NCBI GenBank assembly: GCA_964537885.1
Contig: CAZIDC010000001.1
Span: forward strand, 1 to 35,356
Length of the DNA: 35,356 bases
DNA from: an uncultured Syntrophaceae bacterium
GTDB taxonomy: Bacteria > Desulfobacterota > SM23-61
Direction: 5' to 3'
The number at the start of each line of letters is the position of its first letter. Within the stretch, counting starts at the first letter, position 1. A program made the translations under genes and the position numbers. The notes beneath the pieces were generated by a model. That model did no database searches, had not been told where the DNA came from, and saw only the letters and a list, made by a program, of their open reading frames with translations. Below are positions 13,961-30,768 of this stretch, one piece after another.

Positions 13961-14902
13961 TCAATTCGCCATAAGTTCCGCGATTAACTCCCGAACCAGT
14001 TTTATAGCTTCGGGATGTCTCATCACCAATATATCCGCCCCGGCCATCAAAAGGATAACCCCGGTGATGGCCTCCATCAGAATGCCCCTCTTCTTGGCGT
14101 CCCCGAGATGCGGGGCGTCTTCCGTCTTTAACTTGGCCTCTTTGGCCTTCCAGACTTCTTTGGCCATATTGCAGAGGAGGGGAAACTGCAGCCTCTCATC
14201 CTGTTGAGTCAGGGCGGCCATGCGGTCTCGTTCCATTACCGAATAGGTATATTCGATCCCATACCCCAGACCCCCAGTTGTGGGATCCACTAAAATCTGG
14301 GCGTCCGGCACCCCAAGATTTCCCAGGAGAACATTCAACTGCTTCGCCAGGTTGACATCGATGGGAGTGGAAGCGATGAGCGTGTGTTTGTAGCCAATCG
14401 CCCCGGCGCCGATTTGTTTGTAGTTTTTCTCCCCCACCGGCCCGATAACCAGGTTTTTCCCAGCACAAAGCTCCGAAACCCGCCGCAGGGTTTCGGCATC
14501 CTTTTCATCGTTGCCACAGCCCCATACGATCAAAGGGACGTCCACGGCATCCGCAACTTTTTTGGCGATCATGGCCGCTTCTTCAAAAGGCCGGTTTAAC
14601 CCATTGGGATCCGTGCTGGCTAACTGCAAACAGATCATTTCTGCCCCGAAAGTATTTATGCACTTCTGAGCCCAGGCTACAGGATCTTGAACCACATCCT
14701 TGAAAGGTTCAAGAGCGGCCTCGGCCCAGTCTTCCGGCTGGGCATCGTATATTTCCATTGCGATTCTCGGCGGATGGGGCATCTGGCCTTCAAAAAGGTA
14801 AAAGGGATACATGGTTTCCCCGCCTATGGTCAGAGCCTTCCCCCCTGCCCCCACAGTGACCTCTTTGATCTTTCCTGTATAACTCATTTTTGGTATTTCC
14901 AC
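13961..14902 (-). CDS. acsD: Corrinoid iron-sulfur protein, small subunit
   Basis: 313-aa TIM-barrel-like sequence in the AcsD position. The start is a GTG at 14902, 5-6 nt after GGAGGG. The alternative ATG at 14887 lies too far from the Shine-Dalgarno. Confidence 0.88.
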   Translation of the reverse strand: MEIPKMSYTGKIKEVTVGAGGKALTIGGETMYPFYLFEGQMPHPPRIAMEIYDAQPEDWAEAALEPFKDVVQDPVAWAQKCINTFGAEMICLQLASTDPNGLNRPFEEAAMIAKKVADAVDVPLIVWGCGNDEKDAETLRRVSELCAGKNLVIGPVGEKNYKQIGAGAIGYKHTLIASTPIDVNLAKQLNVLLGNLGVPDAQILVDPTTGGLGYGIEYTYSVMERDRMAALTQQDERLQFPLLCNMAKEVWKAKEAKLKTEDAPHLGDAKKRGILMEAITGVILLMAGADILVMRHPEAIKLVRELIAELMAN

Positions 14903-15078: not shown

Positions 15079-15837
15079 CTAAACCCGGATCATCTTCTCC
15101 ATCATCCCCGCGACCCTCTCCACAGCGGGCGACTCCTCGGGAAGATCTAAAAGAGACTTCCCTTGAAGATCATACTCAAAGATCGTGTTGTCCACCGGGA
15201 TGATCCCCAATAATTCCACTCCTTGTTTCTGAATCTCCTGCTGAAACCCGGCCGCGAGCTCCCCGGGCGCCCGGTCAACGACTAAGTGCTTCTCTTTTAC
15301 GGCCAGCTTCAGATCCGCAATCAGCTCCCGGATCTTGCCTACGGTGCGGATCCCTTTTATCGAATAATCCGAAAGGAAAAGCAAGTGGTCCACCCCCTGG
15401 GTTGTCCGGCGGCTCAAATGCTCCATCCCCGCTTCATTGTCCATAACCACAAAAGGATAATTCTTGGCCAGCTGGTCAATGTGCCGGCGAAGAATGTTGT
15501 TGGCGTAGCAATAGCAACCCGGTCCTTCGGGCCGTCCCATGACTAATAGGTCCAGGCCCGGGGACTCGACCAGGGTTTCATGCACCTTCATCTCTAAATA
15601 GGTCTCTTTGGCCATTCCCGGGGGCAGATTCATCTTGGATTCAAAAAATTCCTCCCGGGCCCCCCCCAGGCTCTTCTCGGCGTTAAGGCCCAGAGCGTCC
15701 GCCAGGTTGGCGTTGGGGTCCGCATCCACCGCCAGAATCGGCCCACAGCCTTTCTTCTTGAGGTACCGGATGACGAGGGCGGAAAGAGTCGTCTTCCCCG
15801 TTCCCCCCTTCCCGGCCACGGCAATTACCTGAGTCAT
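15079..15837 (-). CDS. cooC: CooC/AcsF-type nickel-insertion ATPase (copy 2)
   Basis: Walker A GKGGTGKTT and CxC motif GPGCYCYANN. The track ORF starts at a TTG at 15849. I prefer the ATG at 15837 (MTQVIAVAGKGG). Confidence 0.88.
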   Translation of the reverse strand: MTQVIAVAGKGGTGKTTLSALVIRYLKKKGCGPILAVDADPNANLADALGLNAEKSLGGAREEFFESKMNLPPGMAKETYLEMKVHETLVESPGLDLLVMGRPEGPGCYCYANNILRRHIDQLAKNYPFVVMDNEAGMEHLSRRTTQGVDHLLFLSDYSIKGIRTVGKIRELIADLKLAVKEKHLVVDRAPGELAAGFQQEIQKQGVELLGIIPVDNTIFEYDLQGKSLLDLPEESPAVERVAGMMEKMIRV

Positions 15838-15848
15838 TAAAGTACCCA

Positions 15849-15914
15849 AAGTGTGAAAGTGTTAGTGTGAGTTTAAAAAAATATTACTGACACTGACACT
15901 CACACTAATCACTG
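15849..15914. repeat. Inverted short-period array element, family D (core AGTGT / ACACT, period 6-7)
   Basis: Left arm is aagtgtgaaagtgttagtgtgagt. Right arm is actgacactgacactcacactaatcactg. The RACo stop codon lies inside the right arm. Confidence 0.8.
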
Positions 15915-17864
15915 TTTTAATCTCTGGCTCACCCCGGGAAACTCCGCGCCGTTCGTATGGGGCAAAAATAGAGCCGCTATGTAGTTATCCATAAAACCGG
16001 GGCTTTCGCTCAATTCGACATTGGTCATCATCCGGGAAATCCGCTCCCCATCGTCGAGCATCTCGTTGCAAAACGAGATGAGCCTTGCTCCCAAGAGGGA
16101 GCCGTTGCCGATAAATAGAAAACGGTCTGGCGGCAGCTCCGGCAGGAGCCCGATGGTAATGGCCCGCTCAACGTCGATGAACGAGCCGAAGGCCCCGGCA
16201 ATGACGACCTGTTCCAAATTCCCGATGGCCAGCCCAACGGATTGCAGCAGGGTCGCGTAACCGGCGTACATGGCCGCCTTGGCGCGAATGAGGTTGTCGA
16301 TGTCCACTTCCGTGATGACGACGTCCGCTCCGGTGGCCGTGTCCTCCCCGTAGGCCAGGACGTATTCCATCCCGTCCGGCCCCGGGCGGATGCGCCGGGT
16401 AGGCAGGTCGGTGTCAAATTTTCCGTTGGGCGAGATTACGCCGGCTTCTAAAAACTCAGCCACCATATTGATCAACCCCGATCCGCAAATTCCTTTGGGT
16501 TTAACCATGCCAATCGTCAGGAGCATGGGCTCAAAGGAATTGGAGTCAAGCCGAAAGTCTTCGATCGCTCCCAGGGTGGCCCGCATTCCGTGTTTGATCC
16601 CCCCGCCTTCAAAAGCCGGCCCGGCCGAGCAGGCCGCGGTAACCATCCAGTCCGCATTGCCGATGACGATCTCGCCGTTGGTTCCGATGTCGATGTATAA
16701 AGTCAGGGGTTTGCGCTGGTAGATCCCTGAACCCAGGATGCCGGATACGATGTCTCCCCCCACATAGGACGCCACCGAGGGAAACGTATAAAGATGAACA
16801 TGCTCGCCCACCTCCAGCCCCAGGTTCACGGCCCGGACCGGAGGGATGAAGTTGGCCACCGGTGTATAAGGGGATTCCCGGATATATTTCGGATCCAGCC
16901 CTAAAAGAAGATGGGTCATGACGGTATTCCCCGCGGCGGTCATGTGCGATACCCTGGATAAATCGGTTCCTGACTTGGCGGCCAGCTCCCGGACAATTCC
17001 ATTGATCGTTCCGATGGCGCTCTCCTGCAGCTTTTTCAATCCTCCCGGCTTTTGGGAATAGACGATCCGGCTGATGACGTCGTCCCCGAACTGGATCTGG
17101 GAATTATAATCCGAAGCCTCCGCCAGGGTTTTTCTATTGTTTAAATCCAGGAGCTGCCCCCAAACGCTGGTCGTTCCCACATCCAGCACGATGGAATAAT
17201 GCTCCGGGGCGGTATCTCCCGGTTCCAGGTTGATCAGCTTCACCCGCCTGGAGCCGCGCAACTGGTACTCCCCAAGCTGGGATTCCATCCTCGTCTGCAC
17301 TAAGGTAGCGGTTACTTTCCAGCCGGCTTCTCTCAGAATAAAAGGCAACTTTTTGAGGAGCCGCGAGTCCACCGAAATCCCTTCATGGCCATGGGTCTTT
17401 TTTATCGCCAGGAGCAGGCGGGAAAGGTCCGAACGGTTATCCTTGATCGTTGGCGGATCCATTCCCACGTAGTGCTTGCGCAGAGCCGGGTTGAAGCACC
17501 AGCCCAGGACTAAAGATTCCAGCTCCTGGTGGGAAACTTTCCGGCCGGCGCCGACCCGCCCCCGGGTTCGGGCGATTACCCGTTTATCCAGCGAGGATTC
17601 AATCGGAACAAGGACCTCTAAGTCGCTCAGGATGCGGGTCTGGCAGGCCTGGCGGGTGCCCCCGCGAAATTCTTCTTCGGAGACGTTTGGTCCTCGGGGG
17701 CCCTCCGTCTCACCCTTCTCCACCAGCACCCGGCATTTGCCGCAGACACCCTCCCCCCCGCAGGAAGCCTGGATGTAAACCCCCGCTTCCATCGCCGCCC
17801 TGAGCAAGTTCTCTCCTTTGGCGACTTGAATCTCCCGGTTGTGAGGTTGAAAACGAACAAGCAT
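15909..17864 (-). CDS. acsV: Reductive activator of corrinoid protein (RACo/AcsV-type): 2Fe-2S ferredoxin domain plus ASKHA ATPase
   Basis: 651 aa. N-terminal plant-type ferredoxin motif SCGGEGVCGKCRV, then a long ASKHA-like body (DVGTTS, DIGTNGE). Its TGA stop is embedded in a repeat arm. Confidence 0.85.
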   Translation of the reverse strand: MLVRFQPHNREIQVAKGENLLRAAMEAGVYIQASCGGEGVCGKCRVLVEKGETEGPRGPNVSEEEFRGGTRQACQTRILSDLEVLVPIESSLDKRVIARTRGRVGAGRKVSHQELESLVLGWCFNPALRKHYVGMDPPTIKDNRSDLSRLLLAIKKTHGHEGISVDSRLLKKLPFILREAGWKVTATLVQTRMESQLGEYQLRGSRRVKLINLEPGDTAPEHYSIVLDVGTTSVWGQLLDLNNRKTLAEASDYNSQIQFGDDVISRIVYSQKPGGLKKLQESAIGTINGIVRELAAKSGTDLSRVSHMTAAGNTVMTHLLLGLDPKYIRESPYTPVANFIPPVRAVNLGLEVGEHVHLYTFPSVASYVGGDIVSGILGSGIYQRKPLTLYIDIGTNGEIVIGNADWMVTAACSAGPAFEGGGIKHGMRATLGAIEDFRLDSNSFEPMLLTIGMVKPKGICGSGLINMVAEFLEAGVISPNGKFDTDLPTRRIRPGPDGMEYVLAYGEDTATGADVVITEVDIDNLIRAKAAMYAGYATLLQSVGLAIGNLEQVVIAGAFGSFIDVERAITIGLLPELPPDRFLFIGNGSLLGARLISFCNEMLDDGERISRMMTNVELSESPGFMDNYIAALFLPHTNGAEFPGVSQRLKQ

Positions 17865-17878: not shown

Positions 17879-17909
17879 ACGCTCTGCGCCGTGCGCTATG
17901 CGTTCTGGC
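17879..17909. repeat. Solo (single-arm) heptad array, family C
   Basis: ACGCTCT GCGCCGT GCGCTAT GCGTTCT, preceded by T7. I found no inverted partner in the 44-nt metF-RACo spacer. Confidence 0.7.
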
Positions 17910-18835
17910 TATGATACCTGCGGCCGGGGCAGGAGTCCGGCCCGCTCTACGATCTCATGCACCTTTTCCTCCCATTCGATGGCCATGAGATGGATGCCAT
18001 GGACCCCTTCGATCTGCCGGAGCTTCCTGATCTGTTCCACGCAGATGTTCAATCCTTCTTCTTTGGCTTTCTCTTTCCCTGCGCTCTTCATCCGGTTGAT
18101 GATCTCATCCGGCACTTCCATTCCGGCAACCTTATCCTTCATGTACCTGGCCATGCCCACGGATTTCAAGGGGGTCACGCCCGCCAGGATATGCACTTTC
18201 TCGTGCAGCCCCCGCTCCCGGACCATCTGCATGAACCGCTCGAATTTATCCATATCGTAGATACACTGGGTCTGGATAAAATCGACTCCCGCGGCCACCT
18301 TTTTGGCCAGGCGGATGACCCGGTACTCAAACGGATCGGCAAAGGGGTTCTCTGCGGCCCCGATAAACATCGCCGGGACTCCTTCGATCTCGTCCCCCCC
18401 CAGAACCTTGTGTTCATCGCGCATCTTTTTGACGGTCTGGATTAACTGGATCGAATCCAGGTCGAAGACATTCTTGGCCGTGGGGTGGTTTCCGAATTTC
18501 TGATGGTCTCCCGAAAGACAGAGGATGTTGCGGATCCCCAAGGCATAGGCTCCGAAAATGTCGCTCTGGATGGCAATGCGATTGCGGTCGCGGACGACCA
18601 TCTGCATGGTCGGCTCCAGACCCATCTGTTTAAGAATGGCCCCCACGGCGATGGAGGACATGCGCACGATGGCGGTCTGGTTATCGGTTACATTGATGGC
18701 GTCCACGTTGCCCCTGAGCAGATTGGCTTTGCGCTCGACGACGGAAACATCCGCCCCCTTGGGCGGCCCCAGCTCCCCGGTGACGGCAAACGTGCCGTTG
18801 GTAAGGACTTTCTCCAAATTGCTTCCGGCTTTCAT
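17909..18835 (-). CDS. metF: Methylenetetrahydrofolate reductase, acetogen-type catalytic subunit
   Basis: MTHFR barrel (GPPKG, GAENPFADP, GVDFIQTQCIYD). The track start at 18892 adds 19 non-conserved residues. The ATG at 18835 forms an ATGA overlap with the metV stop. Confidence 0.9.
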   Translation of the reverse strand: MKAGSNLEKVLTNGTFAVTGELGPPKGADVSVVERKANLLRGNVDAINVTDNQTAIVRMSSIAVGAILKQMGLEPTMQMVVRDRNRIAIQSDIFGAYALGIRNILCLSGDHQKFGNHPTAKNVFDLDSIQLIQTVKKMRDEHKVLGGDEIEGVPAMFIGAAENPFADPFEYRVIRLAKKVAAGVDFIQTQCIYDMDKFERFMQMVRERGLHEKVHILAGVTPLKSVGMARYMKDKVAGMEVPDEIINRMKSAGKEKAKEEGLNICVEQIRKLRQIEGVHGIHLMAIEWEEKVHEIVERAGLLPRPQVS

Positions 18836-19500
18836 ATCTTCAAATCCTCCCGGACCCGTTTCCGCGGGCCCCCGTCGCGGCTCGTGGTCCAATCTTTGAT
18901 GGGCAGGACAATCTCCAACTTTTCCAGCTGTCCCAGTTCCTTGAGACGGTCATAAATCAATTGCCAGCCGCAGTCGATTTCCGGATCAATCTCGCACTTG
19001 CCGCGTTTCGACCCGCCGCAGGGTCCATTGAAAAGACTCTTCGAACACCGGGCCACCGGGCAGATGCCCCCCGTCCGGTCCAGGACGCAGTTCCCGCAAG
19101 CCTGGCAGCGCTCAGTCCAAACCCCCTGTTCTTCGGTAACGCCGATGAACTGGGTGTCCACTCCCGGCAAAACCGGGTGCTTGCGGAACTTTTCAGCCAC
19201 AAACTGGATGCCCGCTCCGCAGGCCAAGGAGAGAATGGCCTGATAACCATCGGCATACGGCCGCATCGGTTCGAGATATTCCGTGTCGCACTGCCGCTCC
19301 AGAGTTACCTCCTTAATCTCGAGCGATTTCCCCTGGGTCTGGCGAGCCAGGCGCAGGGCCGAGGAAAGAATGCCTACTTCTTTTTCCCCCCCGGCCGAAC
19401 AGACGGTTACACAACCTTTGCATCCGACGACTAAAATCTTGTCGTAGGGTTCAATCATGGCCAGGATTTCTTTAATGGGTTTCCCTTCCGCAATAATCAT
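18832..19500 (-). CDS. metV: MetV, the Cys-rich MTHFR-associated subunit
   Basis: 222 aa. CKGCVTVC and CQACGNCVLDRTGGICPVARCSKSLFNGPCGGS. AGGAGG Shine-Dalgarno. Confidence 0.88.
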   Translation of the reverse strand: MIIAEGKPIKEILAMIEPYDKILVVGCKGCVTVCSAGGEKEVGILSSALRLARQTQGKSLEIKEVTLERQCDTEYLEPMRPYADGYQAILSLACGAGIQFVAEKFRKHPVLPGVDTQFIGVTEEQGVWTERCQACGNCVLDRTGGICPVARCSKSLFNGPCGGSKRGKCEIDPEIDCGWQLIYDRLKELGQLEKLEIVLPIKDWTTSRDGGPRKRVREDLKI

Positions 19501-19617: not shown

Positions 19618-20026
19618 ATTTTTTGCTCGGGCTGGGCCCCAGTTGGCGGATCTTTTCAGTCATCTCTCGGGCCACTTCTGCAAAGCGCGGTCCCATGGCT
19701 GCGGACATGTTATACATCTCCAGCCGGTCTCCACCAATCCCGGCATCCTCCAGGATGCGCTTGGCCATAGCCACCCGTTTCTTGGCCCGCAGGTTGCCGG
19801 TGAGGAAGTGGCAGTCGCCCTCCAGGCAACCGGCGACATAAACGCCGTCGGCCCCTTTTTCAAACGCTTCCAGCAGAAAACGGACGTCGATCTTGCCCGT
19901 GCAGGGAATCCGCACGATGCGGATGTTCGCCGGATACTGCAAACGCATGGTTCCGGCAAGATCCGCGGCCGTGTAAGCGCAAAAATGGCAACAAAAAGCG
20001 ATGATCGTCGGCTCGAATTTTTCCAT
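19565..20026 (-). CDS. mvhD: MvhD-like 2Fe-2S electron-transfer subunit
   Basis: CCHFCAY ... CTGK ... GCLEGDCHF. The ATG at 20026 shares one nt with the hdrL stop (TGATG). The last ~20 codons are encoded by a repeat arm. Confidence 0.88.
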   Translation of the reverse strand: MEKFEPTIIAFCCHFCAYTAADLAGTMRLQYPANIRIVRIPCTGKIDVRFLLEAFEKGADGVYVAGCLEGDCHFLTGNLRAKKRVAMAKRILEDAGIGGDRLEMYNMSAAMGPRFAEVAREMTEKIRQLGPSPSKKYAERIAHSALRKEEQRA

Positions 20027-23000
20027 CAAGCGGCCTCCCCTTTCAGCGCATCGGCCGGAATATCAAAAAGAACATCACACTTGGCCATGATCTGCTCATC
20101 GGTGAAATGTTGGAGTGTAATCGCTTTCCCCGGGCATTCCGCGGCACAGATGCCGCAGCCATGGCACTTGGCGATTTCGATCTCGGCTACGCCGTCGGCG
20201 TTGATCACGGGAACGTTGTAAGGACAAGCGCGCACGCAGGTCAGGCAGGCGGCACACTTTTCCGGGTCCACGACCGAGACCACCCCGCCTACGTAGATCT
20301 GGTCCTTGGCCAGGACCGTGCAGGCCCGGGATACAGCGGCCAACGCCTGGGAGATACTCTCCTCGACCATTTTCGGCGAGTGGGCCACCCCGCAGAGGTA
20401 GATGCCCTCGGAAGCAAAGTCCACGGGCCTGAGCTTCATGTGAGCTTCCAGGAAAAAGCCGTCGGCGGTTCGGGGCACCTTGAGCATGCTGGCCAGTTTC
20501 GCGGTGTCCGCGGCCACGGTAGCCGCGGATAAAATCAGAAGGTCGGGAGCAAAAGAAATGTTTTCCCGCAGGACGGGATTGTACAAGAAGACCTCCAATT
20601 TTCCGTCCTGGATCCGAACCTCAGGTTTTTTCTCCTCTTCATACCGCAGGAAGAGCACGCCGGCCTTACGCGCCCGGGCGTAATGTTCCTCCAACATGCT
20701 GTACATCCGCATATCCCGGTATAGGATGACCACCCGCGCTTTGGGGTTCAGGGCCTTGATCGTCAAGGCGTTCTTTACGGCCTCAGCGCAACACACCCGG
20801 CTGCAATAAGGCCGCTCTTCATTCCGCGACCCGACGCATTGGATCATGACCACTTCTTTCAAATCGCCAGCCTTTTTCCCATCGGTGGCCATGAGCCTCT
20901 CCAGTTCCAACTGGGTTAAAATTCTGCTGTCCTCTCCGTAGAGGTATTCTTTGGGTTTGAGCTCTTCCCCCCCGGTGGCCACGATGGTAACGCCATGTTC
21001 CAGCTCCCGGGGAAGCATCTTCGCCCCGACCATCAGGCTGGTTTTAAAGTTGCCCACGTAACCCGAAAAATCAGTGACGACGGCATTGGTGAAAACCTGG
21101 ATCTGGGGATGCCGGGTCACTCGGGTGATCATTTCTTTTAGGTATTGGGGCACGTCTTTCCCGTCCAGCGTTCGGTAAAGATGGCGCAGATTGCCGCCCA
21201 GCTCCCCTTCCTTCTCCACCAAGAAAGTTTCAAACCCTTGCTCGGCCAACCCGAGAGCCGCAGTCATCCCGGATAATCCTCCTCCAATCACTAAGCCTTT
21301 CTTAATCACCCCTTTGGTCAACTCTTCCAGGGGGCGGATCAGACGGGCGTTGGCCACGGCCATGCGCACCAAGTCCCGGGCTTTCGAGGTTGCTTCTTCT
21401 TTCTGGTTCATATGGACCCAGGAACACTGATCCCGGATGTTGGCCATTTCGAAGAGGTATTGGTTCAGACTGGCTTCCCGGATCGTTTCCCGAAAGAGAG
21501 GCTCATGGGTGCGCGGGGAGCAGGAAGCCACCACCACCCGGTTCAACTTGTGTTCCTCGATGGCTTTCTTGATCTTTTCTTGCGTATCCTGGGAGCAGGT
21601 GTATAGATTTTCTTCCGCAAAGACCACGTTCCCCAGAGTGGCCGCATATTCTTTGACGGAGGGGACGTCGACTACTCCGGCGATGTTATTCCCGCAGCGG
21701 CAGACAAAGACCCCGATCCTTGGGGATTCTTCCTTCACATCTTTTTGTTCCGGGTATTCCTTACGAATGACCATCGTTCCCCGGACCTCTGAGAGAATCT
21801 CCGAGGCGGCGGCGGCGGCTCCGCTGGCCTGGGCTACTGTCTCGGGAATGTCCTTCGGGCCCTGGAAAACCCCGCAAACGAAAACCCCCGGTTGGGAAGT
21901 GGCCAGCGGCGCAAAAATATCGGTCTTGGCAAAGCCATAGGCGTCAAGGTCGATTCCCAACTTTTTCCCCAGCTCTTTGGTGGAGGCCGAAGGAGTCATC
22001 CCCACCGAGAGGACCACTAAGTCGAATTCCTCTTCCTGAATCTCCCCCGCTTCATTTACGTAGGAGATCAAAAGGTTTTTGGTCTGCGGGTCCTCTGCCA
22101 CCCGGGAAATCATGCAGCGCACGTAGCGCACGCCGTATTCTTTTTTAGCCCGTTCGTAGTAGGCATCGAACCCTTTGCCATAGGCCCGGAGGTCGATGAA
22201 AAAGATCGTCGGCTCAATTTCCTTGTTATGCTCCTTGGCAATGATCGCTTCCTTGGTCGCGTACATGCAGCAAACCGCCGAGCAATATTTATGGTCCTGG
22301 TCGCGGCTGCCCACGCATTGTAAAAAAGCCAACTTCCGCGGTGTTTTCCCGTCCGAGGGGCGATTCACGTGCCCCATCGTCGGGCCGGAGGCCGAAAGCA
22401 ATCGCTCGAACTGCAGAGCGTTTACTACGTTGGGGTACCGTCCCCAGCCATACTCCGGCGACAATTGGGCGTTGTAAACTTCGTAGCCGGGCGCCAGGAT
22501 CAGGGAACCCACCGGCACTTCTTCCAGCCGTTCCACCATGTTGTGATCAATCGCTCCCAAGCCACATTTGTAATAACAGCTCAAACACTCCGAGCATACT
22601 CCGCAGGCCAGGCACCGGGCCGCCTCGGCCTGGGCTTCTTCATCGGTATACCCTAAATTCACCTCAGCAAACGATCGGGTTCGTTGGACGACCCCCATGG
22701 TTTGCACGTGTACCCGGGGAGTTGCGCGGATTTCGCCCAAGGCCATCCGCTCCTTGATTTCCTCCATGGTCAACTTGACAACGGGCAACTCCGGTTTGGC
22801 CTCGGGCTCCAATTCGCCACCCCGCAGATAGCGCTGGATGCTGGCTGCCGCCTTATGCCCTGCGGCCACCGCTTCGATGACGAAAGCGGTCCCGCTGATG
22901 GCATCCCCGGCAGCAAACACGCCGGGGCGGGTGGTGGCGTAGGTGTTGGGATTGACGGCTACGGTTTCCTGGCGGGTTACGCCTACTCCGGTGCTTTCAG

Positions 23001-24516
23001 GGATAAACTCCAGACCGGCCCGCTGGCCCACCGAAAAGATCACCGTTTCGCAGGGGACCACGTGCTCTGAGCCGGGCACAGGGACGGGCCGGCGGCGGCC
23101 GCTCCCGTCCGTCTCCCCCAGCTCCATGCGGATGAAGCGGATTCCCGCCACGCGGCCATTCCCGTCGCCGATGATCTCGGCCGGGTTGGACAGGAAGTGA
23201 AATTGCACGCCTTCTTCTTCGGCGTGTTGAATTTCCAGCGAGTCAGCCGTCGCTTCCGCGGGCGACCGGCGATAGTGGACATGCACTTCTTTGCCAAACC
23301 GGACCGCCGTGCGCGCGCAGTCCATGGCCACATCGCCCGCGCCGATCACGATCACGCGCTGGCCCAGTTCCGGAGGGTTGCCCAAGCGCACGTCCCGGAG
23401 AAAGGGAGTGTTGAGTAGCACCCCTTTCAGGTCCGCGCCGGGGATCGGTAAGGGGATCCCCTTATGCGCCCCCACGGCAATGAGCACCGCGTCGTACCCT
23501 TGGATAAATAAATCCTCGATATGGACCACCGGACTGTTCAATCGCAGGTCCACCCCCAGGTCGACGATGTCGGCCACTTCGCGCTCGATGATCTCCGCCG
23601 GCAAGCGGTACTCGGGCACGCCGACGCGCAACATACCCCCCGGAACCGGCAGCCCCTCAAATACCGCAACCGGATAACCCAGCCGCACTAAGTCCTGGGC
23701 CGCCGTCAGTCCACATGGCCCTGCTCCGATAATGGCCACACGCTTGTCTTGGGTTGGCTGAATGGGCGTAACCGGGGAACGGGGCTGGGCGTAAACTTTA
23801 TCGGTGACAAAACGTTTGAGCGCGCGGATGTCGAGGGGTTGATCGACCAGGTTGCGGTTGCAGGCGTCTTCGCAGCGATGGTTACAAATGCGCCCGCAGA
23901 TCCCGGGAAAAGGATTGTCTTCTTTGATCACCCGCAGGGCGTCCTCGTAACGGCCTTCGCGGATGAGGGCAATATAGCCTTGGGCGCGCTGGCCGGACGG
24001 GCAAGCATCCCGGCAGGGAGCGATGCCTCTTTTTTCAATGGCAAAAGCATTGGGTACAGCCTGGGGGTAGAGTTTATAAGCGGCCCGCTGCTTGGCCATC
24101 CCTTCATCGAATCGCCCCGGGATGATGACCGGACACACCTGGGCGCATTCACTGCAGCCCGTGCATTTGCTCACGTCGATATAGCGCGGCTTGCGGCGGA
24201 CTGTAACCATGAAGTTGCCAGCCTGGCCATCCACTTTCATGACTTCGGTATCGGTCATCAACTGGATGTTTAGGTGCCGCCCCGTTTCCACTAACTTGGG
24301 GCTGATGGTACACATCGAGCAATCGTTGGTGGGAAAGGTCTTATCCAACTGGGCCATCCGCCCGCCAATGGCCGTGGTTTCTTCCACTAAGTAAACCTTA
24401 AAGCCGGAATTGGCCAGGTCTAAGGCGGCTTGCATTCCACCTACGCCGCCGCCGACCACCATCACAGATCCAGTTTTTCCGCTTTTTGTCAGTTGAGGGT
24501 CTTTCACTTTCTCCAT
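20026..24516 (-). CDS. hdrA: Giant HdrA-type flavoprotein (HdrL-like). An HdrA-like FAD module is interrupted by a GltD/NfnB-like NAD(P)H module and followed by a second complete HdrA module.
   Basis: 1496-aa uninterrupted ORF. VMVVGGGVGGMQAALDLA ... CSMC ... CTGCSECAQVCP. Next comes GICGRICNHRCEDAC and VAIIGAGPCGLTAAQDL (GltD-like). The HdrA sequence then resumes (CVGSRDQ ... CSAVCC). The second module begins with RIGVFVCRCGNNIAG ... GLVIGGGLSGMTAALGLAEQG ... CVGSRNE ... CSRVCC, ending in terminal 2x4Fe-4S motifs. Confidence 0.9.
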   Translation of the reverse strand: MEKVKDPQLTKSGKTGSVMVVGGGVGGMQAALDLANSGFKVYLVEETTAIGGRMAQLDKTFPTNDCSMCTISPKLVETGRHLNIQLMTDTEVMKVDGQAGNFMVTVRRKPRYIDVSKCTGCSECAQVCPVIIPGRFDEGMAKQRAAYKLYPQAVPNAFAIEKRGIAPCRDACPSGQRAQGYIALIREGRYEDALRVIKEDNPFPGICGRICNHRCEDACNRNLVDQPLDIRALKRFVTDKVYAQPRSPVTPIQPTQDKRVAIIGAGPCGLTAAQDLVRLGYPVAVFEGLPVPGGMLRVGVPEYRLPAEIIEREVADIVDLGVDLRLNSPVVHIEDLFIQGYDAVLIAVGAHKGIPLPIPGADLKGVLLNTPFLRDVRLGNPPELGQRVIVIGAGDVAMDCARTAVRFGKEVHVHYRRSPAEATADSLEIQHAEEEGVQFHFLSNPAEIIGDGNGRVAGIRFIRMELGETDGSGRRRPVPVPGSEHVVPCETVIFSVGQRAGLEFIPESTGVGVTRQETVAVNPNTYATTRPGVFAAGDAISGTAFVIEAVAAGHKAAASIQRYLRGGELEPEAKPELPVVKLTMEEIKERMALGEIRATPRVHVQTMGVVQRTRSFAEVNLGYTDEEAQAEAARCLACGVCSECLSCYYKCGLGAIDHNMVERLEEVPVGSLILAPGYEVYNAQLSPEYGWGRYPNVVNALQFERLLSASGPTMGHVNRPSDGKTPRKLAFLQCVGSRDQDHKYCSAVCCMYATKEAIIAKEHNKEIEPTIFFIDLRAYGKGFDAYYERAKKEYGVRYVRCMISRVAEDPQTKNLLISYVNEAGEIQEEEFDLVVLSVGMTPSASTKELGKKLGIDLDAYGFAKTDIFAPLATSQPGVFVCGVFQGPKDIPETVAQASGAAAAASEILSEVRGTMVIRKEYPEQKDVKEESPRIGVFVCRCGNNIAGVVDVPSVKEYAATLGNVVFAEENLYTCSQDTQEKIKKAIEEHKLNRVVVASCSPRTHEPLFRETIREASLNQYLFEMANIRDQCSWVHMNQKEEATSKARDLVRMAVANARLIRPLEELTKGVIKKGLVIGGGLSGMTAALGLAEQGFETFLVEKEGELGGNLRHLYRTLDGKDVPQYLKEMITRVTRHPQIQVFTNAVVTDFSGYVGNFKTSLMVGAKMLPRELEHGVTIVATGGEELKPKEYLYGEDSRILTQLELERLMATDGKKAGDLKEVVMIQCVGSRNEERPYCSRVCCAEAVKNALTIKALNPKARVVILYRDMRMYSMLEEHYARARKAGVLFLRYEEEKKPEVRIQDGKLEVFLYNPVLRENISFAPDLLILSAATVAADTAKLASMLKVPRTADGFFLEAHMKLRPVDFASEGIYLCGVAHSPKMVEESISQALAAVSRACTVLAKDQIYVGGVVSVVDPEKCAACLTCVRACPYNVPVINADGVAEIEIAKCHGCGICAAECPGKAITLQHFTDEQIMAKCDVLFDIPADALKGEAA

Positions 24517-24529: not shown

Positions 24530-25372
24530 TCATAGCAGGCCTTTAAGAGTTAAAAGTTTCACGGGATTCACGAAGTGCCTTTTGAACCATTGGCCCGCAT
24601 CCCGATGGGCCATGGCCAGGCCGATCAGCTCCGTGAAGTAAAGGACAGGCAATTCATACCGCTTCCCGGTTTGCCGCGAAATATCTTCCTGCCGGGAATC
24701 AAGGTTGGATTGGCATAGGGGACAAGCCACGACAATGGCCTCGGCGCCGGCTTCCAGAGCCTTGTCGAAAAGCTTCTGGGTCAGGCGGAGGACGATATCC
24801 GTCCGGGTAAGCACTAAGCTGCCCCCGCAGCAATCTGTTTTATACGACCAGGGAATCGATTCGGCCCCCAGCATCCCCATCAGGCGGTCCATTTCCTCCG
24901 GGTTTTCAAAGTTCTTCGCGCCGGTAACCCGGGGGGGCCTGACCAGCAAGCAGCCGTAGTAACATACCACCTTTAGCCCGGTTAACGGCCGCTTCATCAA
25001 AACTTTTATTTTTTCCAGAAGCTCGGAGCTGGCCAGGAACTCGAGAAGGCTCAGAATGTGGAAATTCCCGGTCAAAGCTTTGGCCCCATGGCCCTTGGCG
25101 GCTTCTTGCTCCGCGGCTTTGAACCGGCTGTAGCACGCCGCGCAGGGAATCACGACATCCATCCCCTGCTCCCCGGCAATGGCCAGGTTGCGGGCGGTCA
25201 GGTTGAAGGCTAAGGATTCATCGGTGCTATGGGCAGAACTGGCTCCGCAACAATTCCAGTCCGGCAGTTCGCACAACTCCACGCCGAGCCTCTCGCTGAC
25301 CGCCTTGGTGGATTCATCGTATTCCCGAGATGTTCCGTGGAGGGCGCACCCGGGGTAGTAAGAAACTTTCAC
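24530..25372 (-). CDS. hdrB: Heterodisulfide reductase subunit B-like (two CCG domains)
   Basis: 280 aa. CCG motifs DWNCCGASS and KTDCCGGSL. GTG start at 25372, preceded by GAAGGA. Confidence 0.88.
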   Translation of the reverse strand: MKVSYYPGCALHGTSREYDESTKAVSERLGVELCELPDWNCCGASSAHSTDESLAFNLTARNLAIAGEQGMDVVIPCAACYSRFKAAEQEAAKGHGAKALTGNFHILSLLEFLASSELLEKIKVLMKRPLTGLKVVCYYGCLLVRPPRVTGAKNFENPEEMDRLMGMLGAESIPWSYKTDCCGGSLVLTRTDIVLRLTQKLFDKALEAGAEAIVVACPLCQSNLDSRQEDISRQTGKRYELPVLYFTELIGLAMAHRDAGQWFKRHFVNPVKLLTLKGLL

Positions 25373-25386: not shown

Positions 25387-25923
25387 TTATGATTTAGGTT
25401 TGGGAAAGAGGGCTTTGACCTCCTTCTTGCGGCTTATTCCTGAAGGCAGAAGTTTCAGTTTTCCTTTGCTGAACATCTTCCAGCCCAGCTTGAAATCATC
25501 GAAAAATTTTCCCGTCTTCATTTTATAGCGCGCCATCATCCCCAGCTCGTGAACCCGGCCGTGAGTGCGGATGGAATTTAGGAACGCGGCGTGAAAAAGC
25601 GGGACTTCCTTCTCCGCCGGGGTCACCCCTTCCCGGAGAGCGCACTGGCGGAGCCAGTCCATGACTTTAGCGATATCAATATCATTCGGGCAACGCGTGC
25701 TGCAGGTATAGCAGGAAGCACAGACCCAGATTGTCTTGGATGAAAGGAGCCTATCTTTCATCCCCAGGGAGACCATCTGCATGACCTGGTTGGGTTTATA
25801 GTCCATGGCAAAGGCCACCGGACACCCGGCCGAACACTTCTGGCACTGGTAACAATCCTGGATGTTGATCCCGCTGTCTGCAAAGGGGAAGCCCCCGGGA
25901 TCGGTACGCTTTCCTGTTTCCAT
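25387..25923 (-). CDS. hdrC: Heterodisulfide reductase subunit C-like (2x 4Fe-4S)
   Basis: CYQCQKCSAGCP and CASCYTCSTRCP. The track ORF begins at a TTG at 25992. The first ATG is 25923 (METGKRT). The start is uncertain. Confidence 0.82.
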   Translation of the reverse strand: METGKRTDPGGFPFADSGINIQDCYQCQKCSAGCPVAFAMDYKPNQVMQMVSLGMKDRLLSSKTIWVCASCYTCSTRCPNDIDIAKVMDWLRQCALREGVTPAEKEVPLFHAAFLNSIRTHGRVHELGMMARYKMKTGKFFDDFKLGWKMFSKGKLKLLPSGISRKKEVKALFPKPKS

Positions 25924-26011
25924 TTTGCTTTCTGCCAAAGGTCTGTTCTCCTTTATTAAATTTAATAGGACGCAGATTTCCGCAGATAACAACAGTTAAG
26001 TACGTTGTTTT

Positions 26012-26147: not shown

Positions 26148-27038
26148 TCAGCCCTTAATCCCCGCCGCAACTTTGGCCGCTTTGACTGTATTCGTCATTA
26201 ACATGGTTATCGTCATCGGGCCCACCCCTCCGGGAACCGGCGTAATGGCGCTGGCCTTTTCTTTGACTCCTTCAAAATCCACATCCCCGCAGAGGATTGC
26301 TTTTCCCTCCTTGGTCATCCCCACGCGGTTCACCCCGACGTCGATGACTACGGCCCCTTCCTTGACCATGTCTGCGGTTACGGCCTTGGGCTTGCCCGCG
26401 GCTACAACCAGGATGTCTGCCCTTTTGGTATGGAAAGCGATATCTCTCGTTCCCGTGTGACAGATCGTTACCGTGGCATTGGCTCCCTTCTGCTTTTGGA
26501 GCAATATGTTCGCAATGGGTTTGCCGACAATGTTGGACCGCCCTAATACTACGACTTCCGCTCCATCGATCTTCGCCCCGGAGCGAATGAGCAGCTGCTG
26601 AATCCCGGCCGGGGTGCAGGGAAGATAATCCGCCTCGCCGATCATCAATTTCCCCACGTTCACAGGGTGGAAACCGTCCACGTCCTTCTTGGGATCGATG
26701 GCATAGAGAACTTTGGTTTCGTTGATATGCTTGGGCAGCGGCAATTGCACTAAGATTCCGTGGATCTTCGGGTCCCGGTTGTACTTCTCGATCAATTCTA
26801 AAAGCTTCGCTTCGGTAATATCCGCAGGTTGGTTGTCCTGAACCGAATAGAATCCCAATTCCTTGGCGGTTTTTTGCTTTCCGGTTACATAGCTTACCGA
26901 AGCCGGGTTTTCTCCCACCAGAATCGTCACCAACCCGGGGACTACGTTGTGTTTTTCTTTGAGCAGCGAGATTTCTCGGGATAGTTCTTCCCGGATTTGT
27001 TTCGCCACTTCCGTCCCGCTGATAATCTTCGCGGCCAT
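26148..27038 (-). CDS. folD: Bifunctional methylene-THF dehydrogenase / methenyl-THF cyclohydrolase
   Basis: 296 aa. VILVGxNPAS-like LVGENPASVSYV and PVPGGVGPMTI. AGGAGG Shine-Dalgarno. Confidence 0.95.
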   Translation of the reverse strand: MAAKIISGTEVAKQIREELSREISLLKEKHNVVPGLVTILVGENPASVSYVTGKQKTAKELGFYSVQDNQPADITEAKLLELIEKYNRDPKIHGILVQLPLPKHINETKVLYAIDPKKDVDGFHPVNVGKLMIGEADYLPCTPAGIQQLLIRSGAKIDGAEVVVLGRSNIVGKPIANILLQKQKGANATVTICHTGTRDIAFHTKRADILVVAAGKPKAVTADMVKEGAVVIDVGVNRVGMTKEGKAILCGDVDFEGVKEKASAITPVPGGVGPMTITMLMTNTVKAAKVAAGIKG

Positions 27039-27183: not shown

Positions 27184-28944
27184 TTAAAAGAGTCCTTTCA
27201 CCTTGCCGGTCTTCACATCCACGTCGATCCTCCGGAAGGCAGGATCCGAGCTGGTTCCGGGCATCAGGCTGATGGTCCCGGCGCAAGGACAGAGAAACTT
27301 CGCCCCCGAATAAACCAGGATGTCCCGAATGGGCAGCGTCCAGCCTTTGGGGACTCCCTTGAGGGCTGGATCATGAGTTAAACTCAGATGAGTCTTGACC
27401 ATCATGGTGGAAAAATCCTGGAATTTGGGGTCGGACTCAAATTTCTTGGCTTTGGCGGTAGCCTCGGGCATCCAGGAAACGCCGTCCGCCCCGTATACTT
27501 TCTTGGCAATGGTCTCCACCCGCTGGCGCAAAGGCATCTCCAAAGGATAGAGAAACTTGAAATCCACTTTGTCGTTGCAGGCTTCGATGACCGCATCCGC
27601 CAGTTCCAGGGCTCCATCCCCCCCGTTGGCCCAGTGGGAGGATACGGCGCAGCGCGCCCCGGCCTGCTCGGCCGCTTTGCGGATCAGGGCAATCTCAGCT
27701 TTCGTATCCGTATGGAAGGAATTGACGCAAACGACGGGGTTGATTCCGGCCTGCTTGACAATGCCGATATGGTGGATCATGTTGGCCACCCCTTTTTCCA
27801 GGAGCGGCAAATTTTCCTTGGTATAGGAGGGATCCAGAGGAAGACCGGCCACCACCCGAGGTCCGCCCCCGTGCATCTTCAACGCCCGGACCGTGCTGGT
27901 GATTACCGAAACGTTGGGAATGAGACCGCTCAGCCGGCATTTGACATCCCAGAATTTTTCAAACCCGATGTCGGCGCCGAACCCGCTTTCGGTGACATGA
28001 TAATCGAACATTTTCAGGCCGATGCGGTCGGCGATGATGGAGGATTGTCCGACGGCGATATTGGCAAAGGGCCCGGCATGAATCATAACGGGCTGTCCTT
28101 CGACGGTTTGCATGAGGGTGGGGTTAATCGTGTTGCGCATCCAGGCGCACATGGCTCCGGCGACTTCGAGGTCGCTGGTAGTTACCGGATTGCCTTTTTT
28201 ATCGTAGGCTACCGTGATTTTGCCCAGCCTTTCCCGCAAGTCGGCCAGGTCCCGAACAATGGAGAGGATGGCCATGAGCTCGGAGCTGACGGCAATGCCA
28301 AACCTTGAGGACATCAGGAAGCCGTCCATTTTCCCGCCGATCCCCATGAGGATATTCCGCAATCCCTGGGCGCAAAAGTCTATCACCCAGCCCATTTCCA
28401 CGTTCTTGGAATCAATGTCCAGACGTTTCAGATTGCGCTTGGCCAACTGCTCGTCCGTGTAATTGGCTTCGTGCTGCATGCGGGCATTGAGGGCTACCAT
28501 AGCTAAATTGTGGGCATTCATGAGGTCATTGATGTCCCCCGTAAGCCCCATGGAGAACTCGGTCAGGGGAATTGCCTGAGCATTTCCCCCGCCGGCCGCG
28601 CTCCCTTTGATGTTCATGGTCGGCCCGCCCGAAGGCTGGCGGATGCAGCCGCCGACATTCTTTTTCCTTTTTCCCAATCCCTCGATAAGCCCCATAGAAG
28701 TGGTAGTTTTCCCCTCGCCGAGGGGGGTGGGAGTAATGGCGGTTACTTCGACATACTTGCCATCGGGCTTATGTCCCAGGCGGTTGATGATCTTCATAAA
28801 ATCGAGCTTACCCAGCCGCCCGTAAGGGATCACTTCATCCTTCTCCAGCCCCAGCTCTTTCTGCCAGTCCCCGATTGATTTCATATGCGCTTCGGCAGCC
28901 TCAGAGATCTGCCAGTCAGCCATTTTTACTGCATCATAGGCCAT
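27184..28944 (-). CDS. fhs: Formate-tetrahydrofolate ligase
   Basis: 586 aa. P-loop [20 protein letters not shown] Shine-Dalgarno 7 nt before the ATG. Confidence 0.95.
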
Positions 28945-29032: not shown

Positions 29033-29385
29033 AAGGGGTCGGTGCAATCCTTACATGAAGATCATTCCTGGATGTTCCTGACCACCCCCTCCCTGAAAAA
29101 TTTTCCCCTTTTACGATTTACAACCCCGGCTATCCCGATCAAAAAATGCTTGTGGATTTGTTGCCGAAATCTCCTCGTCGCTTTTCCCCCAAAAGGAATT
29201 TTTATTGCCCCTGGACGATTCAGGTTGAATTTTTCAAAGTTGTAATTCGGTCGTTCTGGTTTCAGGCTCTTTCGTGGAGAGAAAAAGATCCGGGGTGAGG
29301 TATGGGTGAAAGAAAAAAGGATGGTGCTTTGTGTCCCCTGTCCTTTTCCCGAATACAAATGCCCAAAAGAACTGTTAAACATCCC

Positions 29386-29417
29386 CCCGGGGCAAAAGTT
29401 TCCTTTTGCCTCTCGGG
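29386..29417 (-). other. Stable RNA hairpin with a GNRA tetraloop inside the putative fhs leader
   Basis: The minus strand reads CCCG-aga-GGCAAAAG-GAAA-CUUUUGCC-c-CGGG. That is an 8-bp perfect stem, a GAAA loop and a 4-bp outer helix. Confidence 0.5.
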
Positions 29418-29548
29418 TTTGAACCGATTTAAACCAGATCAACTTAAAACACTTTAATCAACCTTTGAATCGCCATAAACCTGTAACGGTTTGCGGAACG
29501 AATGGTCTGAGGATGCCCGTTTTTCCAGAGATAAAATTTTTCGCCCGC

Positions 29549-29577
29549 ATTTAACCATATGTGGGATATCTTGTCAA
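29549..29577 (-). promoter_or_regulatory. Sigma70-type promoter with an extended -10, candidate main promoter of the fhs-to-fdhA cluster
   Basis: The minus strand reads TTGACA (29577-29572), then 17 nt (agatatcccacatatgg), then TTAAAT (29554-29549). The TG of the extended -10 sits in the right place. An A-rich stretch (gcgaaaaagc) lies just upstream. Confidence 0.55.
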
Positions 29578-29852
29578 GCTTTTTCGCCTTGAATTCTGCC
29601 GCTCTTTCTTTTTAAATTTCTCTTTTATTAACGCGAGAGTGGAAGGAAATGGAGGCGGGCCGATCCGCTCCAACAATTTTGGCTCTCCTTGCCCGGTTCC
29701 TTGGAAGAATCACCGCCGGATGATGATTCACGAATCACCCTAAAAAAATGGGGGAGACAGGCGATTCTCTCCAAAATAAATCCCCCTAAAAGGGGAAGGT
29801 GTGAAAAAATTCAAATCTGGATGGGGAAAACTCTTCTTGTTGTCCAGGGGTC

Positions 29853-29879
29853 GGAAAAATTCGTCCGCCTGAGGCGGAC
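29853..29879 (-). terminator. Candidate intrinsic terminator downstream of the cNMP-domain gene
   Basis: The minus strand reads GUCCGCC-UCA-GGCGGAC, a 7-bp GC-rich stem, followed by GAAUUUUUCC. The 3-nt loop is the minimum size. Confidence 0.5.
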
Positions 29880-30123
29880 CAAAATCGGGGGGACAGGAAT
29901 GATCCCCAACGGATAATATGCCTTCCGCGAAGGGACGCCGGCAACTTGGAACAAAACCATGTAGATACATAGGGATTGGCCTTCGGGCCTAACCGAAGTT
30001 GATTCCCCTGCCGGCAACAAGGAGAGCACCGCATCATTTTGGCAAGCGAATTTTTCTGGCCCCTGGACATGAGTGAAGCCTCTCTTTTCCCCCTACCCCA
30101 ATTTTTTCACAGCTTCGGGCGGA

Positions 30124-30600
30124 TCAGGAAACGGTTTCGGCTAACAGCGATCGGGTCCGGAAAAGGCGGGTGGCGATCAAGCAGGAGAACCTCTGAAGAA
30201 ATAACAAGCCAAAGGTTGGGTGGCGCTGGAATAGACGTTCCATGTCCTTCCCTTTGATCATAAGAACCTGACAATCCTCAAGAGCTTTGGCCGTAGAGGT
30301 ATATTTACGGGGATACACGAGCGCCGACCATCCGAAGAGGTCGCCTTTTTTCTTGACAATCCCCGTTATAAATTCCCCTTCCCCCTGGCGGCTGGAAAGA
30401 GCGACTGCCCCCTTCGAAAGAACTAAAAGGTGGCGAGCCCGGCTCTTCTCTTTGAGAATGATCGCCCCTTTGGTGAAGGAGACCTGGCGGAACAATGCGG
30501 CCAGTTCCTTTAGGACTTTTTCCGGTGCTCCCCGAAAATAGGAAGAACGCAGCAGATCTTTTGCAATCGTCCCGGTCGTGGATTTTGCTGTCGCTTTCAT
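30124..30600 (-). CDS. Stand-alone cyclic-nucleotide-binding (cNMP/CAP effector) domain protein without a DNA-binding domain
   Basis: 158 aa. Beta-barrel pattern F..A....L..L......F.KG..I ... GDLFGWSALV ... A.AL.D...L. The ORF ends right after the C-helix, so there is no room for an HTH. AGAGGGA Shine-Dalgarno. Confidence 0.75.
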   Translation of the reverse strand: MKATAKSTTGTIAKDLLRSSYFRGAPEKVLKELAALFRQVSFTKGAIILKEKSRARHLLVLSKGAVALSSRQGEGEFITGIVKKKGDLFGWSALVYPRKYTSTAKALEDCQVLMIKGKDMERLFQRHPTFGLLFLQRFSCLIATRLFRTRSLLAETVS

Positions 30601-30739
30601 GTTCCCTCTTTCATCGGGAATTCCAGCGGAAGATAAACCCGAATTTTGGATCAGATTCCCGGCTGATTCCCCACTTCAATCGAACCCCATCGCTAATGGC
30701 TTCTTCCATCCTCCCTGACTTGCCTCATTCTTTTTAACT

Positions 30740-30768
30740 ATTTTATCAGAGGATCATTCCCAGTGCAA
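30740..30768 (-). promoter_or_regulatory. Sigma70-like promoter candidate for the cNMP-domain gene
   Basis: The minus strand reads TTGCAC, a 17-nt spacer, then TAAAAT, about 140 nt upstream of ATG 30600. Confidence 0.3.

Follow-up and report, generated by a model that had tools for sequence, protein, structure and literature searches.

A predicted HdrL subunit of a Moorella-type methylene-tetrahydrofolate reductase in an uncultured Syntrophaceae bacterium and its candidate NADPH cassette

A 35,356-nucleotide stretch of DNA from an uncultured Syntrophaceae bacterium (contig CAZIDC010000001.1 of assembly GCA_964537885.1), here called the window, was analyzed. At 20026-24516 of its minus strand, the window holds a single open reading frame (ORF) of 1496 codons, hdrL, which corresponds to the hdrA gene of Moorella-type clusters. 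In the predicted protein, two HdrA-like units and an NAD(P)H-binding GltD/NfnB-like module are joined in one chain. By sequence, the ORF very probably encodes the large HdrA ('HdrL') subunit of a type IV (Hdr- or Moorella-type) methylene-tetrahydrofolate (methylene-THF) reductase of the composition HdrCB-HdrA-MvhD-MetVF. The HdrCBA-MvhD-MetVF methylene-THF reductase of Moorella thermoacetica was reportedly described by Mock and co-workers in 2014. In addition, the nucleotide-binding core of the GltD-like module may be an exchangeable cassette.

Gene order and domain anatomy of HdrL

Pfam assignments and coordinates place six genes in the window with the gene set and order of type IV methylene-THF reductase (MTHFR):
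25387-25992 (-), hdrC, 201 amino acids (aa), Pfam Fer4_8/Fer4_17 dicluster protein with two [4Fe-4S] clusters predicted, adjoining hdrB upstream
24530-25372 (-), hdrB, 280 aa, two stretches of Pfam CCG, phmmer matches to the methanogen HdrB chains 9sfi_C (1.7e-40) and 5odc_B (4e-37), nearly full length
20026-24516 (-), hdrL, 1496 aa
19565-20029 (-), mvhD, 154 aa, Pfam FlpD 1-123/123 (1e-51), matches to the MvhD chains 9sfi_K (2.8e-46) and 5odc_D (6.6e-38)
18832-19500 (-), metV, 222 aa, Pfam PF12225 MTHFR C-terminal domain (7e-39)
17909-18892 (-), metF, Pfam MTHFR (PF02219) 2-287/287 (1.3e-45)

The order hdrC-hdrB-hdrL-mvhD-metV-metF, which the initial annotation had read from the DNA, is thus borne out. 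The start of mvhD overlaps the stop of hdrL by 4 bases. Since the listed TTG start of metF overlaps metV by 61 bases, the true metF start may be further downstream. The six-gene set sits between fhs-folD and the acs/carbon monoxide dehydrogenase (CODH) genes.

The hdrL frame was read through all 1496 residues without interruption, as had been claimed, and both motifs quoted for it were found, GICGRICNHRCEDAC at residues 205-219 and RIGVFVCRCGNNIAG at residues 933-947. The protein is divided as follows:
24028-24516 (-), residues 1-163, start of module 1, with the flavin adenine dinucleotide (FAD)-binding motif GGGVGG, TNDC66SMC69 and ferredoxin Cys motif 1 (C118, C121, C124, C128)
22597-24027 (-), residues 164-640, GltD/NfnB-like module, circularly permuted, defined by NF009410 and solved-structure matches
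22597-22611 (-), junction R-C635-L-A-C638, a GltD-type 'RCLxC' element abutting C641, the first Cys of ferredoxin motif 2
21730-22596 (-), residues 641-929, rest of module 1, with ferredoxin Cys motif 2 (C641, C644, C647, C651) and E704/K755; the remainder of its thioredoxin reductase (TrxR)-like fold holds the cluster cysteines C734, C745, C749 and C750
20026-21729 (-), residues 930-1496, module 2, with an MvhD-like N-terminal domain (C939, C941, C974, C999), a TrxR-like fold (GGGLSG; C1227, C1238, C1242, C1243; E1206/K1248) and a C-terminal 2x[4Fe-4S] ferredoxin domain (C1421-C1461)

Solved structures were compared by phmmer, with the HdrA of M. thermolithotrophicus (5odc_A) as the HdrA reference. 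Residues 11-163 align to 139-291 of 5odc_A, where the TrxR-like flavin fold begins and the inserted ferredoxin domain has its first half. For residues 641-855 the counterpart is 293-510, with the second half of the ferredoxin domain and the remaining flavin fold. The second unit follows with residues 930-1102 aligned to 2-174 (N-terminal MvhD-like domain and the start of the second flavin fold) and residues 1344-1484 aligned to 507-650 (the end of the second fold and the C-terminal ferredoxin domain). From the order of these alignments, the insertion point lies within the ferredoxin domain of unit 1 (C128-C641), not in the flavin fold proper, and this domain is split between its Cys motifs C118-C128 and C641-C651. 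The earlier claim of an HdrA FAD domain split at about residues 160-640 holds in that an insert splits the unit, but the flavin fold itself is not where the split occurs.

The insert had been proposed to be GltD/NfnB-like, with its own iron-sulfur (FeS) and dinucleotide-binding motifs, and a domain search detected exactly such a module. The GltD-type NCBIfam model NF009410 scores 542.6 bits on residues 160-659 against a cut-off of 516. The best phmmer matches among solved chains are 9bov_A (8.5e-118), NfnA 9n5u_A (1.8e-108), StnC 8oh5_C (1e-97), NfnB 4ylf_B (2e-93) and NfnI-L 5jca_L (1.9e-89). Eight cysteines (C168, C172, C207, C211, C215, C219, C635, C638) would serve two [4Fe-4S] clusters, the FAD site reads IIGAGPCG, and the NAD(P)H site reads GAGDVAMD...HVHYRRS. 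Score, two Cys sets, FAD motif and NAD(P)H Rossmann fold together place the insert in the GltD/NfnB family. It was revealed that the module is circularly permuted; the opening segment of NfnB ('...FEEVALGYT.EEA..EAQRCLQC') aligns to the end of the insert at residues 610-638 ('...FAEVNLGYTDEEAQAEAARCLAC'), and the RCLAC junction is aligned with RCLQC of NfnB and RCLECG of StnC and 9bov. StnC and 9bov_A have the same permuted order. Here the module is an internal domain, not a subunit of the NfnAB type, and no gene for an NfnA partner (PyrK-like, with [2Fe-2S] plus FAD) was found among the ORFs of the window.

Unit 1 has TNDC66SMC69, which corresponds to the Cys197 position of the methanogen enzyme, and the inserted ferredoxin domain. 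What it lacks, namely an N-terminal (MvhD-like) and a C-terminal ferredoxin domain, is present in unit 2. In the Cys map, there is no cysteine between residues 1031 and 1227 of unit 2; therefore, unit 2 has neither a TNDCSxC (Cys197-type) motif nor an inserted ferredoxin domain. A second HdrA module indeed begins at residue 930, but the idea that it is complete was rejected on these two absences. As judged from their predicted domains, the two HdrA halves are complementary and jointly mimic the methanogen HdrA dimer in a single chain. The two TrxR-like flavin folds are only about 30% identical to each other, which rules out a recent tandem duplication and indicates an old fusion. The protein scored below the cut-offs of the coenzyme B-coenzyme M (CoB-CoM) HdrA equivalogs (NF041778, 722.6 vs 1400; NF041891, 705.9 vs 1300; NF040770, 995.3 vs 1100). 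By its sequence, the large ORF is homologous to methanogen-type HdrA, yet it is not one.

Conservation was assessed in an alignment of 223 full-length homologues, which yields a complete residue map of the cofactor sites. Of 38 conserved cysteines, 37 are invariant and C207 is kept in 96% of the homologues. These cysteines fit 8-9 [4Fe-4S] clusters. The predicted allotment is two clusters each for the inserted ferredoxin domain, the GltD-type module and the C-terminal ferredoxin domain, and one each for the two flavin folds and the N-terminal domain. The positions E356/K409 (M. thermolithotrophicus numbering) are used in the literature to flag bifurcating HdrA flavins. E704/K755 occupy these positions in module 1 and are invariant (223/223). 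The pair in module 2 varies, with E1206 in 176/223 and K1248 in 164/223 of the homologues; the window protein has both (codons at 20773-20775 and 20899-20901), so that residues of the E356/K409 type are present in both of its TrxR-like domains. Since the module 1 pair is invariant and the module 2 pair is not, the alignment suggests that the first flavin alone is universally constrained.

The closest known system is that of M. thermoacetica, whose HdrA has 1487 aa and 162.8 kDa, an N-terminal ferredoxin and TrxR-like domain interrupted by a GltD domain, a stretch (residues 922-1487) which is an HdrA without the inserted ferredoxin domain, and the conserved pairs E696/K750 and E1204/K1246 (Kremp, Roth and Mueller 2022, PMC9430772). 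The 5odc_A and NfnB/StnC alignments and the Cys map give the window protein the same architecture. Compared by the published description, it has a length of 1496 vs 1487, a module 2 starting at 930 vs 922, and E704/K755 and E1206/K1248 at the place of the two Moorella pairs. Like the Moorella operon, that of the window has six genes in the same order adjoining acs/CODH genes. In contrast, the host is an uncultured Thermodesulfobacteriota bacterium rather than a Bacillota acetogen, and the window protein has NADPH-like YRRS/GxGxxA motifs while NADH use is reported for Moorella. Chadwick et al. 2022 (PMC9012536) also described the Moorella HdrA as a fusion of two HdrAs with complementary loss of Cys197 and the N-terminal domain. 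Thus, the kinship to the Moorella-type complex and to 'HdrL' that had been noted from the sequence is well founded in domains, gene order and published descriptions. On the other hand, the proposal of a distinct version of the Moorella enzyme that would answer the question of the electron donor falls, because the fused design is already present in the very enzyme that posed the question (PMC9430772).

The Sporomusa ovata HdrCBA-MvhD-MetVF locus (Kremp et al. 2022, PMC9430772) has the same genes in the same order as the window, and its HdrA is likewise a tandem protein with no inserted ferredoxin domain in the C-terminal half. However, the S. ovata HdrA is a 101-kDa protein with no GltD module, no extra ferredoxin domain and a single E/K-bearing flavin site. 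The name HdrL was given in 2009 to HdrA/glutamate-synthase fusions that have mvhD behind them (Strittmatter et al. 2009, PMC2702500), and the window protein is such a protein, being a fusion of HdrA with the glutamate synthase small subunit that has an NAD(P)H site and mvhD next to it. The HdrLs of Desulfobacterium autotrophicum HRM2 and Syntrophobacter fumaroxidans (PMC2702500; Sedano-Nunez et al. 2018, PMC5947623) are the same large fusion followed by mvhD. Their genes, however, adjoin dsr, fdh or hdrABC and are discussed for sulfate respiration, whereas the window has metVF and Wood-Ljungdahl genes and no DsrA was found; some of those copies also hold selenocysteine or a fumarate-reductase-like domain. 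A literature search pairing 'HdrL' with 'NfnB' found nothing.

Other relatives share parts of the design. In ANME-1 (anaerobic methanotrophic archaea) HdrA9-11, the ferredoxin domain is interrupted by an NfnB stretch of 500 aa (Chadwick et al. 2022, PMC9012536), and such archaeal forms are the type II and type III HdrAs of a 2025 survey (PMC12054007). For archaeal type III HdrA and ANME-1 HdrA9-11, NAD(P)H was proposed in place of ferredoxin, as is proposed here for the window protein; unlike the latter, the archaeal type III HdrAs are single units with no second HdrA fused and do not share a gene cluster with metFV. StnC of the Sporomusa Stn transhydrogenase (8oh5_C), NfnA of NfnABC (9n5u_A), 9bov_A and NfnB (4ylf_B) have a homologous FeS-FAD-NADPH module, which in StnC and 9bov_A ends with ...EA.RCL.CG as does the window insert, but these modules sit on other scaffolds with neither HdrA nor MetFV. 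Finally, the type III MTHFR of Acetobacterium woodii, MetFV-RnfC2, likewise has a MetFV core and an NADH-oxidising subunit. Its entry module is RnfC-like with flavin mononucleotide (FMN), unlike that of the window; the enzyme has neither Hdr nor MvhD subunits and does not bifurcate.

Predicted electron route and alternative readings

In the proposed route, NAD(P)H would bind the GltD module, and the GxGxxA and YRRS signature makes NADPH the most likely form here. The nucleotide would reduce the GltD FAD, from which electrons could travel singly, first over the pair of GltD-type clusters and next over the pair in the ferredoxin domain, until they reach the FAD of half 1, the flavin that bears the E/K 'bifurcating' signature. 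In canonical HdrA, the inserted ferredoxin domain is the outlet to ferredoxin. Thus, the GltD module may replace ferredoxin at the half 1 branch. The N-terminal domain of unit 2, completed by the cysteine of unit 1, would dock MvhD. From the HdrA core, electrons would reach MetV and the FMN of MetF, probably via MvhD, for methylene-THF reduction, and HdrC and HdrB would offer a site for a third redox partner. By analogy with the Moorella enzyme, the complex probably works by strictly coupled bifurcation or confurcation and not as a simple NAD(P)H:methylene-THF oxidoreductase.

This assignment draws on what is known of two enzymes. The Moorella complex co-purifies as six subunits, and in pulldown assays of S. 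ovata proteins MetVF interacts with the Hdr and MvhD subunits. According to reviews, the Moorella HdrA, produced heterologously, is where NADH is oxidised; the Moorella complex reduces methylene-THF with benzyl viologen and reduces benzyl viologen with NADH, but does not reduce methylene-THF with NADH. A third redox partner has been deduced from this behavior. In a 2026 paper, where the reaction is still called 'not fully understood', menaquinol is put forward as a co-reductant. No cryo-electron microscopy structure of an Hdr-type MTHFR was found in a literature search.

The gene neighborhood was compared among the 80 best related loci, each count being based on loci with enough flanking sequence. 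It was found that hdrL is followed by mvhD in 59/61 loci, and that metV lies downstream in 41/61 and metF in 37/57. The string hdrL-mvhD-metV-metF recurs in Chloroflexota, Desulfobacterota, Bacillota and other phyla. hdrC-hdrB lies directly upstream of hdrL in 12/56 loci, while in many Chloroflexota loci it lies downstream of metF instead, and in 9/56 loci a metF paralogue takes its upstream place. One locus with the exact Moorella order (L064) is that of the nearest named relative, a metagenome-assembled genome (MAG) of Thermodesulfobacteriota; it has 73% identity and its operon continues with RACo, cooC, acsD and cooS, like that of the window. As a separate observation, many Chloroflexota, as represented by eight of the loci, have two tandem hdrL-like genes with mvhD after each, and these tandem loci go on to metV-metF with hdrC-hdrB downstream rather than upstream. 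A further eleven loci have the order metF paralogue-hdrL-mvhD-metV-metF without hdrBC.

Several points weigh against the assignment as a type IV MTHFR with this electron route. The exact Moorella six-gene order is a minority arrangement, present in 4/41 loci with both flanks; the subunit composition therefore varies across the family. The match to Moth_1194 is one to its published description (PMC9430772), not to its aligned sequence, and no Moorella sequence is among the best 120 protein matches obtained with the window protein or with its Desulfotruncus arcticus orthologue as a query. The biochemistry of type IV enzymes is known for M. thermoacetica and S. ovata only, not for this organism. 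The order of the clusters is drawn by analogy with methanogen Hdr and NfnB structures, and the preference for NADPH is read from motifs, while the Moorella enzyme uses NADH.

The alternative that fares best comes from the initial annotation itself, in which the built-in pyridine-nucleotide module makes a further redox partner needless or settles which one it is. A complete NAD(P)H-FAD-FeS entry module does lie within the HdrA-core polypeptide, and electron transfer from NAD(P)H (-320 mV) to methylene-THF (-200 mV, a quoted value) is exergonic. Nevertheless, such a self-contained enzyme is improbable. The Moorella enzyme of the same architecture does not couple NADH to methylene-THF reduction and would need the partner mentioned above; moreover, the window operon retains HdrC and a full-length HdrB with both CCG domains, and both HdrA modules bear the E/K signatures of a bifurcating flavin. 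Since the architecture is the same as in the enzyme already under study, the window leaves the donor problem unsolved.

It is still less probable that HdrL-HdrBC-MvhD acts on disulfides or in the manner of a DsrC-type reductase as a general NAD(P)H-linked enzyme, or that it serves another enzyme of the operon, for example the putative formate dehydrogenase, with metVF merely co-transcribed. HdrL genes of sulfate reducers adjoin dsrABC, fdh or por, and about one third of the related loci have no metV downstream. In the window, however, mvhD overlaps the hdrL stop and metV-metF follow directly, in the string that recurs across phyla, and the co-purification of the Moorella complex and the S. ovata pulldowns tie Hdr to MetVF. 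Searches of the contigs of this genome, a MAG of 3.79 Mb in 755 contigs with 92.7% completeness, gave no match above the curated cut-offs for DsrA, RnfC or the [NiFe]-hydrogenase large subunit; because the MAG is fragmented, these absences count as weak evidence. 

In line with the type IV assignment, a profile search of the contigs of this genome found one copy of metF and one of metV, both within the hdrL operon, and the enzyme of this operon appears to be the sole MTHFR of the genome.

The integrity of the large ORF was assessed against independent sequences. An independent ENA contig (P0026) encodes a protein with 97% identity and gap-free colinearity over residues 1-1190, a span that takes in all three domain junctions; thus, a mis-assembly, which the initial annotation had named as grounds for abandoning its proposal, is excluded. 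Among the matches listed, more than 100 clusters at 90% identity, of about 1500 aa and with full-length coverage, are 60-83% identical to the large ORF. A scan of one genome per species detected relatives of about 1500 aa in at least 595 species genomes; Chloroflexota, Desulfobacterota, Acidobacteriota and Bacillota are among the phyla represented, and Desulfotruncus arcticus, Desulfoscipio gibsoniae, Desulfotomaculum nigrificans, Desulforamulus ruminis and Pelotomaculum propionicicum are examples of carriers in culture. The notion that separate hdrA and gltD genes were joined into a chimera during assembly, for which the fragmented state of the source MAG could be cited, is refuted for practical purposes by the colinear independent assembly and by the recurrence of the layout in these genomes and in hundreds of protein clusters, cultured Desulfotomaculum, Desulforamulus, Desulfoscipio and Pelotomaculum strains included.

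Surroundings of the six genes

The genes around hdrL are all on the same strand and form one long Wood-Ljungdahl operon. The other genes of the window are:
29062-35224 (-), region 5' of fhs, with ftsZ, ftsA, a B12-binding radical SAM protein (30836-32548) and a protein with a cyclic nucleotide (cNMP)-binding domain (30124-30600)
27184-28944 (-), fhs
26148-27038 (-), folD
15909-17864 (-), RACo
15079-15849 (-), cooC
13961-14902 (-), acsD
11879-13921 (-), cooS/acsA
9627-11837 (-), acsB
8165-9517 (-), acsC
7167-8048 (-), acsE (pterin-binding)
6428-7054 (-), DUF3786
5599-6360 (-), second cooC
4775-5602 (-), second pterin-binding protein
4198-4662 (-), NuoE-like
1059-4205 (-), NuoF-GltD fusion, 1048 aa
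2-901 (-), NuoG/FdhA-type molybdopterin protein, N-terminus

A 126-aa ORF 5' of fhs gave no Pfam match. The span 4775-8048, which separates the acs genes from the NuoE/F genes, holds the genes of two pterin-binding proteins and of a DUF3786 protein, as well as the second cooC. The NuoE, NuoF-GltD and molybdopterin genes (2-4662) probably encode an NADPH-linked and possibly bifurcating formate dehydrogenase. NuoEFG-type genes adjoining metFV have been discussed as a possible further MTHFR type (Yi et al. 2021).

The FtsZ of the window shares 81-84% identity with proteins that carry the label Thermodesulfobacteriota, and the best HdrL matches are labelled Thermodesulfobacteriota, Syntrophaceae or Deltaproteobacteria. 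The genome has one [FeFe]-hydrogenase-like match and four MvhD-family matches, one of them within a 776-aa frame (contig C237). A 1185-aa frame with a GltD-type FeS domain was also seen in the same genome (contig C325).

Two nucleotide cassettes in the GltD-like module

The second Rossmann fold of the window insert reads GAGDVAMD...HVHYRRS. YRR(S/T) is found at the same place in all five best-matching solved chains (4ylf_B, 5jca_L, 8oh5_C, 9n5u_A, 9bov_A), several of which are NADPH-binding enzymes. Many close homologues read GGGNVA.D...(C/S)LE(S/K/A) instead. As a general rule for Rossmann folds, a preference for NADH usually goes with an acidic residue at this place, and on these motifs the LE type may be read as NADH-like and the YRR type as NADPH-like. 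The two types are almost equally common, with YRR in 118/223 and LE in 104/223 full-length proteins.

How are the two types distributed over the HdrL phylogeny? For the HdrA backbone (residues 1-160 and 660-1490), a FastTree tree requires at least 24 label changes, against a mean of 76 for shuffled labels. In an IQ-TREE tree of 45 proteins, there are 8 changes, at least 6 of which are forced by well-supported branches. Monophyly of the YRR proteins on the backbone is rejected by an approximately unbiased (AU) test (delta lnL 717, p 5e-75), although the group was named after the tree had been seen. In contrast, a tree of the GltD core without the motif columns splits YRR and LE on one branch with 100% support.

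Pairwise comparisons point in the same direction. The window protein is 84% identical to an LE protein (P0032) in the backbone and 53% identical to it in residues 241-500, while the values for a YRR protein of Chloroflexota (P0077) are 60% and 80%, respectively. In the window, a YRR cassette is thus set in a backbone that is closest to those of LE proteins. The simplest reading of these data is a repeated recombinational exchange of a cassette of roughly residues 221-500, the FAD/NAD(P)H core of the GltD insert, at 23017-23856 (-) of the window. Both types also occur within single taxa. Desulfotomaculum nigrificans CO-1-SRB carries SLEAE and another D. nigrificans carries YRRTR, while Desulfoscipio gibsoniae, Desulfoscipio sp. 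XC116 and Desulfotruncus arcticus have one copy of each type apiece. No paper describing an NADPH/NADH cassette switch in HdrL was found.

The NuoF-GltD fusion has the same permuted GltD module as its C-terminal 480 aa; this module matches the HdrL insert with 45% identity over all 477 residues, and its motif is YRRT. Since this module also reads YRR, both large redox enzymes of the operon look NADPH-linked.

The proposal that the GltD nucleotide core is a mobile cassette of two ancient forms, swapped many times among otherwise closely related HdrL backbones, and that the MTHFR of the window is hence NADPH-linked, is evenly poised. The remaining interest of the locus lies in this predicted switch, not in the HdrL architecture. 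If the proposal is true, the NADPH link would differ from that of the NADH-linked Moorella enzyme and would alter the redox bookkeeping of the pathway, in an enzyme that is widespread over many phyla. Two interchangeable cassettes, sometimes side by side in cultured strains, would then be a natural experiment on donor specificity and pathway energetics.

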